DNA from: an uncultured Acidimicrobiia bacterium
Lineage (GTDB): Bacteria > Actinomycetota > Acidimicrobiia > UBA2766
NCBI GenBank assembly: GCA_964370965.1
Contig: CAYJLW010000010.1
Coordinates: forward strand, 4,227-68,226
DNA: 64,000 nt
Direction of reading: 5' to 3'
The position numbers were made by a program, and so were the translations under genes. Below are positions 1 to 10,069 of this stretch, piece by piece; position 1 is the stretch's first letter; each line of letters starts with the position of its first letter. The notes under the pieces were generated by a model, which saw only the letters and a list, made by a program, of their open reading frames with translations, was not told the DNA's origin and made no database searches.

Positions 1-231
1 GTCGAAGGCACCGGCGTGGACGAGACGGTCGAGGATGGACCGGCGCACCTGGGTGCGACGCACGAAGTCCTCCAGGGAGGTGAAAGGCCGCTCTGCCCGG
101 GCACACAGAATCGAGTCGATCTCGGCGGCACTGATGCCGGTGACATCCTGCAGGCCGACACGAATCCCCCACTTCGCGGGAGGGAGCTTGCCCCCTGGAA
201 CGAACATGTGTTCGAGTTTAGCCCGATCCTC
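1..231 (-). pseudogene. dnaE2: C-terminal fragment of DnaE-type polymerase (dnaE2/ImuC tail, HhH region); continues beyond window start
   Basis: Minus-strand frame reads EDRAKLEHMFVPGGKLPPAKWGIRVGLQDVTGISAAEIDSILCARAERPFTSLEDFVRRTQVRRSILDRLVHAGAFD. This matches the conserved DnaE motif that follows the fingers domain (E. coli DnaE: IVYGIGAIKGVGEGPIEAI...FDLCAR...LEKLIMSGAFD). An in-frame TGA at 232-234 sits immediately 5' of it. No RBS. Confidence 0.5.
200..215. promoter_or_regulatory. LexA/SOS-box-like palindrome ACGAAC-ATGT-GTTCGA
   Basis: Matches the actinobacterial SOS box TCGAAC-N4-GTTCGA at 11/12 positions with correct spacing. It lies 44 bp upstream of the DtxR-family start at 260, inside the dnaE2 fragment codons. 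Confidence 0.4.
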
Positions 232-240
232 TCAGGGGGG
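231..240. repeat. direct repeat CTCAGGGGGG (left junction copy)
   Basis: Near-identical to CTCAAGGGGGG at 1865-1875. Contains the TGA (232-234, minus strand) that precedes the dnaE2 C-terminal fragment frame. Confidence 0.5.
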
Positions 241-259
241 CTCTGATACGCTGCGACGC

Positions 260-931
260 ATGTCCGGACCGCGTCGACCGTCGATCGCCCGCGAGGACTA
301 CCTGCAGACCATCCTGCAACTCGACGAGGAGAACACCCCCGTCATCCAGGCCCGTCTCGTGGAGCGTCTCGGGCTCAGCCCCCCGTCGGTCTCCGAGGCC
401 ATCCGCAGCCTCGAAGACGACGGCCTTGTCACCGTGGCGGAACGCAAGCGCATCACCCTCACGGACAGCGGCCGCGTCCTGGCCGAGAAGATCGTCCGCC
501 GGCACCGGGTCGCCGAACGCATCCTCACAGACCTCCTCGGCCTCCCCTGGCACGAAGCGCATCTCGAGGCACACCAACTCGAGCACGGCCTCAGCGACCG
601 TGTCGTCGAGGCCGCGCTCGACGTCCTCGGACATCCCACGACCTGCCCGCACGGCAGCCCGATCCCCGGGAGCGCCTACGTCGCCGGCGCCGGGGTGACC
701 CTCGACACCGTGGCGACGGGTGAAGCGTTCCGCGTGGACATGGTGAGCGAAGAGGTCGAGCACAACCACGACATCCTCCAGTACCTGGGCGAGAACGGGT
801 TCGTCCCCGGCGTCGACGCCGAGGTGACGTCCGTGGCGCCCGACGGCACCCGCAGCGTCGTCGTCGCCGGCCAGACCATCGCCGTGGCCCCGGCCACGAG
901 CCGCCACGTCTTCGTCACGCCGCACCGATAG
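260..931 (+). CDS. DtxR/IdeR/MntR-family metal-dependent transcriptional regulator with C-terminal SH3-like (FeoA-type) domain
   Basis: N-terminal wHTH: IAREDYLQTILQLDEENTPVIQARLVERLGLSPPSVSEAIRSLEDDGLV. Metal-site motifs EAHQLEH and GHPTTCPHGSPIP. C-terminal SH3-like domain. ATG at 260 is the internal M that gives the ~223-aa size typical of the family. Confidence 0.8.
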   Translation: MSGPRRPSIAREDYLQTILQLDEENTPVIQARLVERLGLSPPSVSEAIRSLEDDGLVTVAERKRITLTDSGRVLAEKIVRRHRVAERILTDLLGLPWHEAHLEAHQLEHGLSDRVVEAALDVLGHPTTCPHGSPIPGSAYVAGAGVTLDTVATGEAFRVDMVSEEVEHNHDILQYLGENGFVPGVDAEVTSVAPDGTRSVVVAGQTIAVAPATSRHVFVTPHR

Positions 932-1138
932 ACCCACCGTCCTTCTCGGACTTCCGGGAGTCGGCAATCCGCCGCGTCAGGGCAGATCCCCCCACCAGCG
1001 CACGCGTCAGCCGGGCCGCCCAGCGGACGACGACCTGCCGCGTCAGGGCGGGTTCTGCCCGCCCGGCACTGCCCGGAGGCGGCACGCGGTCGAGCCGGGG
1101 GGTCCGTGGGGAGGAGTTGGCTCCCCCCCACGCTGGGG

Positions 1139-1780
1139 TCAGACTGCGCCGGTTACGGGGAGGCGGTGGGCGAGCATGGCCGTGAGGAGGTCTCCGAGAC
1201 CGGCGAGGAGTACGGAGTCGACGGCCGTCCAACGGTCCTCCGCCGACCTCTCGGCGATCACGATCCCACGCCCGGAGGACCCGATGGCCTGGTATGCGCC
1301 CGCCGAGCGGGCACGGCGGTGCAGCAGCCAACGACGTGTCGCCCGCGCCAGGCCTGTGAACGGCGTTGTGGCCCCGAGGAGCTTGCCTTCCGCGAGCGGC
1401 CCCGCTGCCTCGAGGAGCGGCAGCATCCCCACGGGGGCGGGAGCGCCGCGGCGCAACGACGGTGTCTCGTTGGTGCTCACGGCGAGCTCCACCGTGGGCA
1501 CGCCGCGGCGGGGGAGGATCACGGTGAGCTGGGACATCCGGGCGACGGCGAAATAGGGCGCCGCCGCTGCCCGCAGGATCTCGCTGTCGCGCCCACCGCG
1601 CTCGTGCGCCCGCCAGAGGGAATCGACAGAGACGCGCAGGGTGCGAACCGCCATGTCCGGCTGGACGCCGGCCCAACCCTCCGCCGGGGGCGCCGCCAGG
1701 TGCAGGTTGTTCTCGTAGCCGACCACGATGCGGTCGAGATCCGCCGCCGTCGGCGGTGCGATCCTGGCAAGCGTCTGCAT
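1139..1780 (-). CDS. hypothetical protein (213 aa), no family recognised
   Basis: ATG at 1780 is preceded by GGAAGGGGG 6 nt upstream. Composition looks coding. Lies inside the segment that interrupts dnaE2. Confidence 0.55.
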   Translation of the reverse strand: MQTLARIAPPTAADLDRIVVGYENNLHLAAPPAEGWAGVQPDMAVRTLRVSVDSLWRAHERGGRDSEILRAAAAPYFAVARMSQLTVILPRRGVPTVELAVSTNETPSLRRGAPAPVGMLPLLEAAGPLAEGKLLGATTPFTGLARATRRWLLHRRARSAGAYQAIGSSGRGIVIAERSAEDRWTAVDSVLLAGLGDLLTAMLAHRLPVTGAV

Positions 1781-1864
1781 CCGGTAGCCCCCTTCCGAGC
1801 ACGCGTCTCCTCCCCCATCGGCGGGGTTGTGGGACCGGTTGAGAGATCTCCCGGGAAGCGGATG

Positions 1865-1875
1865 CTCAAGGGGGG
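1865..1875. repeat. direct repeat CTCAAGGGGGG (right junction copy), followed by hairpin GGGGGAG-cgagct-CTCCCCC (1871-1890)
   Basis: Contains the stop codon (1866-1868) of the dnaE2 N-terminal body. Confidence 0.5.
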
Positions 1876-4424
1876 AGCGAGCTCTCCCCCTGATCGCGGA
1901 GCGGTTCCACGCGGTAGGCGGCATCGGAGACGTTGACGTCGAGAGGCAGGACCGCCACACCGCAGCGGCGGGCCTCGTGCACGAACAGCCGCCGCGGATA
2001 CATGCCGGGATCGTGGGTGAGGACACCGGCGAGGAACGCTGCAGGCTCGTGCGTCTTCAGCCAGGCCGACTGGTATGTGGTGACCGCGAACGCCGCCGCA
2101 TGCGCCTTGCAGAAGCCGAAGGAGGCGAAGGAGCGCACCTGGCCCCAGACCGCGGCGGCCTCCGCCGGGGCGATTCCCCGGGCAACCGCCCGGGCCTGAA
2201 GCCACTCGCCGATCTCGACGGTCTCGGGGTCGTCGGGGTCGCCGAGGCGACGGCGGACAGCGTCGGCTTCGGCCTCGCTCACCCCCCCGAGCGCGGCGAT
2301 CGTCCGGATCACCTGCTCGTGGTACACGATGACGCCATGGGTCTCTGACAGGATCGCATCGAGCAGCGGAGACGCGCACTCGACGGGTGCCCCGTGGTGG
2401 CGCTCCACAAACGGGTTCACCATGTCGCTCTTCACGGGCCCGGGCCGGAACAGGGAGATGTCCACGATGAGATGGGGGAACTCGGTGGGCTGGAACTTGC
2501 CCAGCAGCTCCCGCTGGCCGGGACTCTCGATCTGGAAGCAGCCCAGGGTCCGCCCGGAACGGATGAGCTCGAAGGTGGCAGGGTCGTCCCGGGGGACGGC
2601 GTCGACGTCGACCGTCTCGCCCCGCACCCGGGCGACCTCCTCCAGGGCGTGGGCGATCGCCGACTGCATGCGCACCCCGAGCACATCGAGCTTGACGAGA
2701 CCTAGTGCCTCGACGTCGTCCTTGTCGAACTGGGCCATGGGCAGACCTGACGGTGCCCGCTGCAGGGGGACGAGGTCGCGGAAGTCGTCCGGGCCGATGA
2801 GGACCCCGCTGGCGTGCATGGCCAGGTAGCGGGGGAACCCGTCGACCACGGCGCAGCGGGCGAAGAGATCCCGGACGTGGGGGGCGTCGAGGCGCACCCC
2901 CGCGAGCTCGGGCAGTGCCGCGACGGTCTCCTCGATCGCTCCCGCCGACCCGAAGAGCGGGAACTGGCGGGCGATGGTGTCGACCTCGACCTCGGGCAGA
3001 CCGAGGGCCCGACCCACCCCCCGGATCGCTCCCCGCACCCGGTAGGTGGCGACGGCGGCGACCATCGACGTGCGCTCGGCGCCGTAGCTCCGGGCGATCC
3101 ACGCCAGGATGTCGTCGCGGCGAGCGGACTCGACGTCGACGTCGACGTCGGGCAACTCGCTGCGATACTCGTTCAGGAAACGGGCGAAGCTGAGGTCGTG
3201 ATGCACGGGGTCGACGTCGGAGATCCCCAGCAAGTGGGTGACGAGGCTGCCGGCGGCCGAACCCCGACAGGCGCAGCGCACCCCCATGGCTTTGATGCCG
3301 GCGACGATCTCGGCGACGAGGAGGAAGTAGCCGCAGAAGCCGAGCCGGCGGATGACAGCCATCTCCCCGTCGAGACGGGCCCGCACCCCGGCACCGGCGC
3401 CGGGCATGCGCCGGGCGAGGCCTTCCTCACAGGCCTGCTCCAGCGCCACCGCCGGCGGGACGCCGCCACTGGTGCGCACGGGCGGAAGCCGGAACGGCCC
3501 CGTTGCCGGCGGCGGCCCCCCCCCGAGGCGATAGGGGGCATCGTGGCGGATGGTGGGAACGTAGCGGCACTGCTCGGCGAGCGTCAGGCTGGCGTCACAG
3601 ACCCACTCGGCACCGGCGAAGCGACGGCGCATCTCCTGCGGGGAGCACAACTCGCGGCGAGCTCCGCCCCGTCGGGCGGCCACGGCCGTGAGCGGTGCCA
3701 GTTCCCGCATGGCGAGGAGGAGGTCGTGCACCTCGGCGTCCTCCGGCTGGAGGTAGCAGGCGTCGTTGGTCGCCACGACCCGCACCCCGAGACGGCGACC
3801 GAGCGCGAGCACCCGGTCGACACGCGTGGCGCTGTCGGGAAGGAGATGGTGGTGCACCTCGAGGCTGTAGTTCTCCCAGCCGCAGACCTCGACGAAGCGG
3901 CGCACCGTGGCCGTCGCCCGTTCGACGTCGCGCAACCCGAGCCAGCGGCCCACCTCGCCCCGCTCACATCCGGACAGCACGAGAAGACCCTCGGCGTGGC
4001 GGCAGAACGCCTCCCAGGAAACCCCCAGCGAGGGGGCTCCGCCCCTCTCGTCGAGATGCATCTCGCTGAGGAGACGACAGAGGTTGGCGTAGCCGGTGGC
4101 GCTCTGCACGAGGAGGACCGTGTGGCATCCCCGCCGCAACTCGGGCGTGCTGCGGCGATCGGGGGGAAGGGAGGCGCCCTCGGCCTCGGCGGGGTCGGGC
4201 ACACCCGCCGGCGGGGCGATGGGCACCTCGGCGCCGAGTATCGGCCGCACCCCGGCGCCGTGGCAGGCCCGCAGGAACCGGACCATCCCCGCCAGACCGA
4301 GGTGGTCGGTGAGCGCCACCGCAGGCATACCCAGAGCGCCGGCCGCGCTCGCCAGAGCCTCGGGCCGGATGGCGCCGTAACGGAACGAGAAGGACGAGTG
4401 CACATGGAGATGGACGAACGACAT
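1866..4424 (-). pseudogene. dnaE2: error-prone DNA polymerase DnaE2 (ImuC), N-terminal 852 codons (PHP, palm and fingers); ORF ends prematurely at the insertion junction
   Basis: Starts MSFVHLHVHSSFSFRYGAIRPEALASAAGALGMPAVALTDH (PHP domain). Ends ...GVAVLPLDVNVSDAAYRVEPLRDQGESSLPP*. The HhH/OB tail is missing here but is found at 1-231. A LexA box lies 37 bp upstream. Confidence 0.75.
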
Positions 4425-4460
4425 GGCGAACACGAGTAGAGACGGGGAAGTTCTAGGGGC

Positions 4461-4476
4461 TCGAACACTTGTTCGA
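4461..4476. promoter_or_regulatory. LexA SOS box TCGAAC-ACTT-GTTCGA
   Basis: Perfect match to the Gram-positive/actinobacterial SOS-box consensus, 37 bp upstream of the dnaE2 ATG (4424). Confidence 0.8.
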
Positions 4477-4615
4477 GTGCAGACTGACACGCTAACGCCC
4501 CGGCCCCCCGCCGTCAAGAGGTCGCGCCAACAGCGTGAGGAAGCCCATGTCGTCGCCTCCCGCGGGCCGGGCGGAGACGAGAAGAGAGCGCGGGCGGGGC
4601 CTCGACGCGTCGGTC

Positions 4616-6076
4616 TCAGACGGGCGCGTAGGCCGTGTCCCACCAGGGCCGGTCACCGGCGAAGGGAGGTGTCCCGGTGTGCAGGGCCATGCCCCGGTAC
4701 CTGGCCCCGTAGCGACGCGCCAGCTCGGCGTGGGCGGCACGCAGCTCCGTCGCCTCGGCGGCGGTGACGTTGCGTTCGGGGTAGGTGATCACGCCGGCCT
4801 CGCTGACCACGAAGGGCAGGCCGGGCTTGTAGCGGTCCCATCGAGCCACCAACTCCTCCACACGGTTCACGATGTGGGACGCCTTCGGGGAGGGCTCGTT
4901 CATGTACGCGTGCAACTCCAGCGTCTCGACCTGGGGAGCGAGAGCGGCCACCCAGTCCTCGAAGACGAGGTTGCTCGCCACCTTGGAGCGGCCCCCGGTC
5001 TTGCGGGCGAGCACGTCCTTGACGATGCCGTAGAGCTCCGCCATCTTCGCCGTCCCGCCTGTCCAGTAGCCGTTGTCGAGGCCGTACGTGGACCAGTTGA
5101 CCCAGGGCGTGAGGTAGTTGGGCTGGGCGCCCCCGAGGGTGAAGCGCAGGTCCGGCTCGTTCCAGGGCGCCACCGAGATCTGCTCCGCCGGCACGTACAC
5201 GAGGGCGGCGTCGAGGAGGTCTTCGAGGAAGGGCCGGTAGGAGTCGCTCGGGTCCTTGAACCAGAGCCGCATGCTGTCAGCCGCCCAGGCGTCCTTGACG
5301 AGCCCGCCGTTCGGGCACCAGCCGAACAGGGGCGCCGCCGACGTCCCGGCCCAGCACTGCCCGTGCACAAAGAGAGTGATGACGAGTGGGGCGCCGATGT
5401 CACGGATCTTCCGGAAGAAGGGGGCGTAGGCGGACCAGTCGACACGGGCCCGGCCGTTGGGCATGTAGCGGTCGATCGACACGAGCCAGCGCACGACCCC
5501 CGGGCGGGCCGTGTCGAGCTTGGGGACCACAGACAGGTCGTGAGCGGGATCGGCGTTCATGTCGTATATCGCCCAGCCGGTGGGAGCGGTGTCCGGCCCC
5601 GAGGGCGGGGGGGGCGGGGGCGGGGGCGACGACATCGTGCCCGCCGCGACCGTGACCGTGGTCGAAGACGACACCGCCTCCCCGCGGTTGTCCGTGACGG
5701 TAAGGCTCACGGAGTATGCGCCCGGGACGTTGAAGAAGTGCGCCGCGGTGGCGCCCGACGCCATGGTGCCGTCGCCGAAGGCCCAGGCGTACGTGAGCAC
5801 GTACCCGTCCGGGTCCCGCGACCCGGAGGCGTCGAAGCGGACCTGCAGGGGGGCGATCCCGCTCGTGGCGGAAGCGGTGAACACCGCCGAGGGCTCCCGG
5901 TTGGGGCGACTCGTGGGCCGGGAGGCGAGGTGGGCCTCACCGGGAGCGGCGACGACGGTCATGCCGGCGGCGAAGACGGTCGCCACCACGGCCAGGGCCA
6001 CGAGGGCCCGGCCGGAGCGCCGGCGATGCGCGCGGCGCGCGAGGTGTCGGTCTGTGACGTAGGGGTGCGACGGCAT
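4616..6076 (-). CDS. secreted/anchored glycoside hydrolase-like protein: signal anchor - PKD domain - poly-Pro linker - catalytic domain with GH5-type NEP motif
   Basis: PKD-like: PLQVRFDASGSRDPDGYVLTYAWAFGDGT...YSVSLTVTDNRG. PPPPPPPP linker. ISVAPWNEPDL motif. N-terminal hydrophobic anchor. Confidence 0.6.
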   Translation of the reverse strand: MPSHPYVTDRHLARRAHRRRSGRALVALAVVATVFAAGMTVVAAPGEAHLASRPTSRPNREPSAVFTASATSGIAPLQVRFDASGSRDPDGYVLTYAWAFGDGTMASGATAAHFFNVPGAYSVSLTVTDNRGEAVSSSTTVTVAAGTMSSPPPPPPPPSGPDTAPTGWAIYDMNADPAHDLSVVPKLDTARPGVVRWLVSIDRYMPNGRARVDWSAYAPFFRKIRDIGAPLVITLFVHGQCWAGTSAAPLFGWCPNGGLVKDAWAADSMRLWFKDPSDSYRPFLEDLLDAALVYVPAEQISVAPWNEPDLRFTLGGAQPNYLTPWVNWSTYGLDNGYWTGGTAKMAELYGIVKDVLARKTGGRSKVASNLVFEDWVAALAPQVETLELHAYMNEPSPKASHIVNRVEELVARWDRYKPGLPFVVSEAGVITYPERNVTAAEATELRAAHAELARRYGARYRGMALHTGTPPFAGDRPWWDTAYAPV

Positions 6077-9658: not shown

Positions 9659-10069
9659 GTGCTCATCGTTGACACCGGCGTCCTGCTCGCAGCGGCTGAC
9701 AACGCCGACCCCGACCACAAAGCCTGCGCCCAGCTTCTCGCCAAAGACGCCCGACCGCTTCTCACCACCCCGCTCGTGGTCGCCGAGACCGCCTATCTCA
9801 TCGGCCGCCAGCTCGGGCCGAAGGCCGAAGCCCGGTTCTTCCGCTCTGTCGCCAACGGCGACATCATTGTCCAGCCCCTCACACCCGACGACGACCGTCG
9901 CATCGCCGATCTCATCGACCAATACCTTGACCTGCCCCTCGGAGGCACCGACGCAAGCGTCATCGCCCTCGCCGAGCGTCTCGACCAGACCCGGGTCGCC
10001 ACGCTCGACCACCGCCACTTCGCGGTCGTGCGTCCCGCCCACCGCGACACCCTCGAACTCCTCCCGTGA
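9659..10069 (+). CDS. vapC: PIN-domain ribonuclease toxin VapC
   Basis: LIVDTGVLLAAADNADPDH...VVAETAYLI...DASVIALAERL. GTG start 3 nt after the antitoxin stop. Confidence 0.8.
   Translation: MLIVDTGVLLAAADNADPDHKACAQLLAKDARPLLTTPLVVAETAYLIGRQLGPKAEARFFRSVANGDIIVQPLTPDDDRRIADLIDQYLDLPLGGTDASVIALAERLDQTRVATLDHRHFAVVRPAHRDTLELLP

Follow-up and report, generated by a model that had tools for sequence, protein, structure and literature searches.

Does a LexA-box-like palindrome in front of a metalloregulator gene serve this gene, or does it belong to the SOS polymerase gene on its other side? The question is raised by a stretch of 64,000 nucleotides from an uncultured Acidimicrobiia bacterium (contig CAYJLW010000010.1 of assembly GCA_964370965.1; the whole stretch is called the window in the following), which near its first letter carries the palindrome ACGAACATGTGTTCGA between the start of a DtxR-family gene and a piece of dnaE2, the gene of an error-prone DNA polymerase, on the minus strand. 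A first-pass annotation considered the palindrome an intragenic SOS box in the dnaE2 flank of an inserted segment, and suggested that the DtxR-family gene had captured it as an operator. The analysis described here leads to another answer: very probably, the palindrome is the LexA operator of an operon that consists of the C-terminal half (C-half) of a long-split dnaE2 and the Pol IV gene dinB, while the DtxR-family gene appears to be transcribed from a promoter of its own.

The palindrome and the two halves of dnaE2

Compared with the actinobacterial consensus TCGAAC-N4-GTTCGA, the palindrome at 200-215 agrees at 11 of 12 positions, including all 10 positions of the core half-sites and the 4-nt spacing, exactly as the first-pass annotation had read it. 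This consensus is the LexA site of Mycobacterium tuberculosis as defined by mutagenesis and chromatin immunoprecipitation (ChIP) (PMC3381160), while for Streptomyces venezuelae the LexA motif tCGAAC-N4-GNNCGa has been derived from ChIP-seq and surface plasmon resonance (PMC9380542). The exact core CGAAC-N4-GTTCG occurs twice in the window (201-214 and 4462-4475) as compared with 0.09 occurrences expected by chance, and none of the 100 dinucleotide-preserving shuffles of the window from which this expectation was derived reached two; the initial estimate of about 0.06 per 64 kb was, consequently, about right. With one mismatch allowed, 5 sites are observed versus 3.4 expected, which is not significant. 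The exact boxes are confined to the 5′ ends of the two dnaE2 halves, the second one lying downstream of a predicted promoter of the N-terminal half (N-half), TTGACG (4517-4512)-17 nt-TAGCGT (4494-4489). Because its orthologous placement is kept in seven diverged lineages and the other half of dnaE2 has a perfect box in front of it as well, the palindrome is, judged by its sequence context, almost certainly a genuine SOS/LexA operator.

Read on the minus strand, the box is TCGAACACATGTTCGT, with the start codon ATG (207-205) of the C-half at the centre of the palindrome (CGAACACATGTTCG). This ATG is the sole canonical start ahead of the conserved HhH domain with its GIRVGL motif, upstream, the frame is closed by a stop codon at 234-232, and the operator takes in the first two codons, Met-Phe. 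The designation of the site as intragenic is therefore correct in a historical sense only, as today the palindrome is located at the 5′ end of an independent cistron. Contigs that bear an identical DtxR protein, of which 24 were read (listed in 41 collection blocks), provide the full C-half, a protein of 298 or 308 aa with the HHH_6 domain (PF14579) and an OB fold (PF01336), whose stop codon overlaps by 4 nt with dinB outside the window. This gene encodes a 403-aa Y-family polymerase that passes as a member of the Pol IV subfamily (392.9 bits against NCBIfam NF003015, cutoff 367) and keeps the catalytic motifs DMDAF and SLDE, suggestive of an intact active site. Just left of window position 1, the C-half linker between HhH and OB contains a 30-bp in-frame tandem repeat (TEQRQLRSHV), of which L001 and L003 have 3 copies and L002 and L004 have 4 (L001 9052-9948; L002 6710-7636), a copy-number polymorphism between samples.

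The N-half matches PF02811, PF07733 and PF17657 and ends in a variable loop directly after '...LPLDVNVSDAAYRVEP'. Against NF004225, the model of error-prone DNA polymerase, it obtains 577 bits (7.5e-173) over profile positions 5-811 of 1047, below the whole-protein cutoff of 939 as expected of a half-gene; the DnaE models NF004226 and TIGR00594 score it slightly above NF004225. Across both halves the DnaE2 domain set is complete, with PHP, Pol III alpha catalytic and fingers domains on one and HhH and OB on the other, yet it is distributed over two cistrons instead of a single polypeptide. The gap between them measures 1.65 kb here and 1.8 to ~7.9 kb in relatives, and a gene on the opposite strand is situated in it. 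As the Pfam results for the dnaE2 halves contain no Hint or intein family and the tails past the conserved domains comprise only ~10-25 residues, any reassembly must be non-covalent.

Besides the DtxR-family gene, the gap in the window harbours orf213, which has no Pfam or NCBIfam match and whose sole homologue among 5.8 billion proteins is itself. It is treated as a species-specific orphan, and on the same grounds its interpretation as an ImuA'-like gene or as an intein remnant was rejected.

Table 1. Features at the split dnaE2 locus of the window, followed by the corresponding predicted promoter elements in related loci.
Feature	Position	Strand	Description
dnaE2 C-half, 5′ part	1..207	minus	start ATG 207; runs off window start; HHH_6 5.5e-15
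LexA/SOS box ACGAACATGTGTTCGA	200-215 (core 201-214)	palindrome	match to actinobacterial consensus
C-half -10 hexamer TAAACT (TANNNT)	215..220	minus	predicted, read from sequence; 7 nt upstream of A of ATG 207
DtxR extended -10 TGATACGCT	244-252	plus	predicted; TG + one base + TANNNT; 7 nt before ATG 260
DtxR-family metalloregulator	260-931	plus	223 aa; winged helix-turn-helix, metal-binding/dimerisation and SH3-like domains
orf213	1139..1780	minus	orphan open reading frame (ORF) in gap, between N-half and 3′ end of DtxR; called in all contigs of the species
dnaE2 N-half	1866..4424	minus	852 aa; PHP, Pol III alpha catalytic and fingers domains
Second LexA box TCGAACACTTGTTCGA	4461-4476 (core 4462-4475)	palindrome	12/12 consensus; 37 nt upstream of dnaE2 N-half ATG
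C-half promoter layout, window			predicted; TAAACT-CGAACAC-ATG
C-half promoter layout, L008			predicted; TAGGAT-CGAACAC-ATG; hexamer differs, position identical
C-half promoter layout, L005 and L091			predicted; TTGTAC-box-TA(A/G)GAT (TAAGAT in L005, TAGGAT in L091)
C-half promoter layout, L009 and L089			predicted; TTGACC-box-..TAGGGT-6 nt-ATG
C-half promoter layout, L006			predicted; box, then TATGCT
DtxR extended -10, L008			predicted; TGATACGCT
DtxR extended -10, L005			predicted; GGATACGCT
DtxR extended -10, L006/L094 and L009			predicted; TGATACGAT
DtxR element, L093 (relative without dnaE2)			predicted; similar, TGGTACTCT

Conservation of the split and of its operators

Homologues of the C-half of ~280-330 aa occur as separate genes, and within one Acidimicrobiia clade at least seven diverged lineages have a split dnaE2, their C-halves being 52-71% identical. 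Beside the 64-kb window, the comparison draws on loci of 20 kb. Read in the direction of dnaE2, locus L005/L077 (Acidimicrobiia SJ788) consists of the N-half, the DtxR gene on the opposite strand, a DUF6777 gene, the C-half and the Pol IV gene; L006/L094 of the N-half, a 76-aa ORF, the DtxR gene on the opposite strand, ~7 kb of unrelated genes, the C-half and Pol IV; and L009 (Acidimicrobiia STL-ACT9) of the N-half, DtxR, ~4 kb, the C-half and Pol IV. In L008, the C-half of which is 71% identical, DtxR is divergent from the C-half as in the window, while in L089/90 the C-half and Pol IV stand behind other neighbours and in L091/92 they are found on short contigs with little upstream sequence. 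What had been taken for an inserted segment is, by its conservation in seven lineages, the gap of an evolutionarily old gene split and no recent insertion. No convincing target-site duplications or terminal repeats were found around it, the only notable pair being the two LexA-box regions, and the GC profile gave no sign of a foreign island. Over 26 nt, these two regions (201-226 and 4462-4487) share 77% identity, to which 8 of the 12 flanking bases outside the box contribute, a likeness that may be due to chance or be the trace of a promoter duplication.

How exceptional the split is among Actinomycetota was addressed by a C-half profile scan of one genome per GTDB species, which delivered 80 loci. 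In ~70 of them, from other Actinomycetota, dnaE2 is one continuous ORF across the junction, and a kilobase-scale split is present in L009 and L077 only; a few short loci had no N- or C-half match and were unscorable. Many C-half matches of 250-520 aa had given the impression of widespread splitting, which was rejected, as the genome scan shows most actinomycetotal genes intact and many of the short matches to be contig-end fragments or frameshifts. In L055, L066 and L074 (around position 10000), all from long-read assemblies of metagenome-assembled genomes, an otherwise intact dnaE2 loses its frame in or close to the junction loop; these frame breaks may be indel errors rather than real splits. 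A further locus, L096 (3553-10824), carries a 412-aa HEPN_SAV_6107 plus PHP fragment, a 498-aa HhH/OB fragment and a Y-family polymerase 2 kb further on, an arrangement that may go back to another break-up of dnaE2, independent of the first, or to an artefact of assembly.

The position of the break is informative as well. Where the gene is intact, the stretch from '...LPLDVN.SEPEY..E' to 'GIRLGL' varies in length by 3-435 nt, on account of which the junction is read as a tolerant loop, and the split falls exactly in this variable loop with all domains retained. Pairwise identities match between the halves (0.61/0.61/0.65 for the N-half and 0.61/0.60/0.64 for the C-half), and pairwise dN/dS ratios are 0.27-0.42 for the N-half, 0.27-0.53 for the C-half and 0.17-0.52 for DtxR, calculated by NG86 and approximate only at these divergences and GC content. 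All three genes are under purifying selection, which argues against a pseudogene.

The operator shares this conservation. A perfect box is part of the C-half promoter in six of the seven lineages (window, L008, L005, L091/92, L006/L094 and L009), and in L089/90 the box deviates by one mismatch (CGAACATATGTTTG). It is kept whether DtxR is 52 bp or ~7 kb away, and since the next gene upstream of the C-half is not the same in all lineages (DtxR, DUF6777, DMFA2_C or an ABC transporter) and the intergenic DNA has diverged while the box stays, the box travels with the C-half. At the dnaE2 junction of the ~70 intact genes of other Actinomycetota no box is found, so the operator would have been gained with or after the split. 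The N-half is preceded by a perfect box in all complete split loci (at 4462 in the window, 3634 in L005, 1823 in L009 and 13514 in L094); a perfect box of its own on each half fits co-regulated partners.

The predicted promoters of the C-half (Table 1) place the box differently. In the window and L008, 7 nt separate the -10 hexamer from the start codon and a Shine-Dalgarno sequence is missing, an arrangement that points to a leaderless mRNA and to a box covering +1 (about -8..+8). In the other lineages, the box is situated between -35 and -10 or just ahead of the -10, so that its predicted position is compatible with repression in every lineage.

Several peculiarities of the boxes in related loci deserve mention. 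The ATG of the L005 N-half is centred in its LexA box (3627-3650; TATTCT-CGAACAT-ATGTTCG, the protein beginning MF...). It shares this operator-on-start-codon design with the C-half of the window, a likeness which hints that the module may have been copied between halves. The C-half box of L006 (7926-7977) and L094 (near 3035) is embedded in a 42-bp perfect palindrome, CACGACAGCATAGTCGAACAGATGTTCGACTATGCTGTCGTG, far longer than a LexA site needs. Other perfect LexA boxes close to the locus are found at L001 5508-5521 (outside the window), L005 409-422 and L094 19078-19091, one of them between a DUF3040/SCO2097-family gene and a dcm-type cytosine methylase gene, the others overlapping the starts of small unannotated ORFs; possibly, they mark additional SOS genes of the clade.

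The DtxR-family gene and the competing explanations

The assignment of the gene downstream of the box, which ends 45 bp before its ATG, to the DtxR family is borne out by three Pfam domains, PF01325 (Fe_dep_repress, the N-terminal winged helix; 2.3e-13, 50.6 bits, cutoff 26), PF02742 (Fe_dep_repr_C, metal-binding/dimerisation; 1.1e-27) and PF04023 (FeoA/SH3-like, C-terminal; 1.5e-10). With this three-domain architecture and conserved metal ligands (the equivalents of His79, Glu83, His98, Glu105 and His106 in an alignment to 7b1v) the protein resembles the DtxR, IdeR and MntR regulators, the best match in the PDB being Saccharopolyspora erythraea IdeR (1.4e-36) and the closest solved relatives IdeR and DtxR. 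Unlike IdeR, it has Asp and His in the places of the ligands Met10 and Cys102, a replacement that, by what is known of the family, points to Mn-type rather than Fe-type selectivity, and it scores below the cutoffs of both the IdeR/DtxR iron-repressor equivalog (NF053665; 149 versus 290 bits) and the MntR equivalog of NCBIfam (112 versus 350). It is a DtxR-family member whose specificity is uncertain and probably of the Mn type. Orthologues are 56-88% identical and present in the dnaE2 gap of every split locus that reaches that far.

Since the coding region starts only 19 bp inside the supposed insert, the first-pass annotation had concluded that any promoter must lie in the dnaE2 flank. Inside these 19 bp, though, a predicted extended -10 element is located (Table 1), the form of which, TGATACG(C/A)T at 6-7 nt before the start codon, is conserved in five lineages of the split clade. 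In L005, L006/L094, L009 and L089, DtxR and the C-half are separated by other genes (0.9 to ~7 kb) with the box directly upstream of the C-half. Over the 160 nt in front of DtxR, L005 and L006 show no box-like site with two or fewer mismatches, and in L009 the nearest exact boxes, at 1823 and 9877, are more than 3.8 kb away from the DtxR start near 5650. On grounds of the conserved extended -10 and of a DtxR gene that elsewhere has no LexA box, the gene probably possesses its own leaderless promoter, from which it follows that transcription is predicted to start within the insert and without connection to the palindrome. For a +1 at A260, the position of the box would be about -60..-45, upstream of the core promoter and in a poor position for repression.

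L093, a lower-GC relative represented by 20.7 kb, preserves the synteny ROK, MoxR, DUF58, TgpA, DUF3040, DtxR ... YkuD. From these 20 kb, dnaE2 halves, dinB and LexA boxes are all absent; either the loss of the SOS polymerases took place around DtxR, or DtxR is the original resident of the site. A DtxR/IdeR-type operator in the 52-bp intergenic region between DtxR and the C-half was discarded as a candidate, as a weak resemblance to TTAGCC at 218-223 is not conserved in L008, and an Rfam scan of positions 1-5000 at E<=1 found no RNA family.

The favoured explanation starts from an ancient break of dnaE2 in the variable surface loop that separates the fingers domain from the HhH/OB module. The N-half would have kept the ancestral SOS promoter with the box at 4462-4475, while the C-half, with dinB behind it, would have its own SOS-box promoter and be transcribed leftwards, on the minus strand, as an operon under the operator at 200-215, where in the window a LexA dimer would sit over the start of transcription as well as translation. 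Upon DNA damage, RecA-stimulated cleavage of LexA would de-repress both halves together, and the two polypeptides would assemble non-covalently into a working DnaE2 beside Pol IV. DtxR would be a long-term resident of the gap, divergently transcribed from its own extended -10, and its closeness to the box a by-product of the short gap on that side in the window species and L008. The anatomy of the locus, its conservation, the intact ORFs and the purifying selection are shown by the sequences themselves; that LexA binds, where transcription starts and that the halves assemble we infer from them.

Some points weigh against this explanation. A scan of positions 1-1200 for Escherichia coli-type sigma-70 promoters and terminators found nothing, so that the proposed promoters receive no support from it; in high-GC actinobacteria, failure of a sigma-70 consensus scan is expected and the scan uninformative. 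The dN/dS ratios carry the approximation mentioned above. In addition, the box of the window and L008 is placed in a divergent region of 52 bp that is shared with DtxR, with two predicted starts back to back at a distance of 53 bp, and DtxR may be affected by LexA or by the divergent SOS promoter.

This last point is the core of the proposal that DtxR itself is under SOS control via the adjoining LexA box, which would render metal regulation DNA-damage-responsive in this species. The 45 bp between box and DtxR start, an adjacency kept in L008, speak for it, as do the LexA sites between divergent genes known from M. tuberculosis (PMC3381160) and the probable steric interference of RNA polymerase at back-to-back promoters. 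Such control is nevertheless improbable, as the box follows the C-half and not DtxR in L005, L006/L094, L009 and L089, where, as in L093, the DtxR orthologues are without a nearby box; it also falls outside the DtxR core promoter as defined by the conserved extended -10, and a de-repressed divergent SOS promoter is expected, by inference only, to compete with the DtxR promoter rather than to induce it. The same behaviour of the box in loci with a distant DtxR speaks against operator capture. Were dnaE2, on the other hand, a dead gene disrupted by insertion, the palindrome would be a relic or a chance sequence without function. The physical interruption by 1.65 kb with a gene on the opposite strand, as well as the orphan orf213, which looks like recently acquired DNA, would suit such a decay, which is highly improbable in view of full-length ORFs, domains and the motifs PDVDVD and HASG kept across lineages that are ~55-65% identical, dN/dS ratios of the halves of approximately 0.3-0.4, a box retained in seven lineages while the adjoining DNA diverged, and the low chance expectation of the exact core.

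A functional box is also conceivable if the C-half and dinB work independently of the N-half, with HhH/OB as an accessory of Pol IV and the N-half acting alone or idle. That the N-half and the C-half evolve at the same rate, and that both keep a perfect LexA box wherever the split locus is complete (window, L005, L009 and L094), makes this quite improbable, even with translational coupling of C-half and dinB through the 4-nt overlap and the further rearranged fragments of the locus in another lineage, L096, on its side. Beyond the favoured explanation itself, a wider reading comprises an intein-free two-subunit DnaE2, PHP-palm-fingers plus a separate HhH/OB protein, that would assemble only after SOS induction because each half-gene bears its own LexA operator, together with a Mn-type DtxR functionally coupled to it. 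In the window species, such coupling could be exerted via the back-to-back overlapping promoters and link metal status to mutagenic synthesis; as a whole, this combination appears unlikely.

The split polymerase in comparison with known systems

The order of an error-prone C-family gene followed by a Y-family gene under SOS boxes of the type tCGAAC-N4-GNNCGa corresponds to the Streptomyces dnaE2-dinP (dinB2) operon, and the neighbouring S. venezuelae genes dnaE2 and dinP are LexA targets whose expression is induced by DNA damage (PMC9380542). This LexA-controlled actinobacterial pair of DnaE2B and a Y-family polymerase, classified as the DnaE2B-PolY module (PMC12926913), is the nearest system described so far, and the ~70 intact actinomycetotal loci share the dnaE2-IMS layout. 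Unlike in the Streptomyces operon, dnaE2 consists here of two genes 1.6-8 kb apart, with unrelated genes in between and an SOS box on each half, and unlike Streptomyces DinB2, which is described as inactivated (PMC12926913), the Y-family partner retains DMDAF and SLDE. The boxes of the window match the mycobacterial and actinobacterial SOS box at 11/12 (200-215) and 12/12 (4461-4476) positions and stand at predicted promoters of SOS-type genes; what sets apart the C-half boxes of the window and L008, as well as the N-half box of L005, is that their centre is the start codon of a probably leaderless mRNA.

A C-family catalytic subunit derived from two separate genes has a counterpart in the split DnaE of cyanobacteria, DnaE-n and DnaE-c, which is the replicative DnaE1 and is re-ligated by protein trans-splicing through a split intein. 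Here, by contrast, the SOS polymerase DnaE2 is concerned, the split is located between fingers and HhH, and no intein is present. Two comprehensive surveys of C-family polymerases describe no split dnaE2 and only the intein-split cyanobacterial DnaE, with fragmented polymerase sequences being reconstructed or removed (PMC3919608; PMC12926913). In a full-text literature search on dnaE2, none of the papers returned contained the phrase 'split gene', and an intein-free two-cistron DnaE2 with an SOS operator per half appears to be unreported.

While the LexA box itself is ordinary and its capture by DtxR probably wrong, the context of a split dnaE2 is more unusual. Pipelines that discard or 'repair' fragmented polymerases (PMC3919608) would miss the split form, and DnaE2 would be mis-scored as a pseudogene. 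The locus represents an SOS polymerase gene stably split over long evolutionary time at a domain boundary, with both halves under purifying selection and each equipped with an SOS operator, and it exemplifies the re-wiring of a regulon after a gene split, in that the orphaned half would have acquired an operator of its own. If the halves reassemble, this would constitute a natural experiment in which the HhH/OB module of a C-family polymerase works as a separate subunit.

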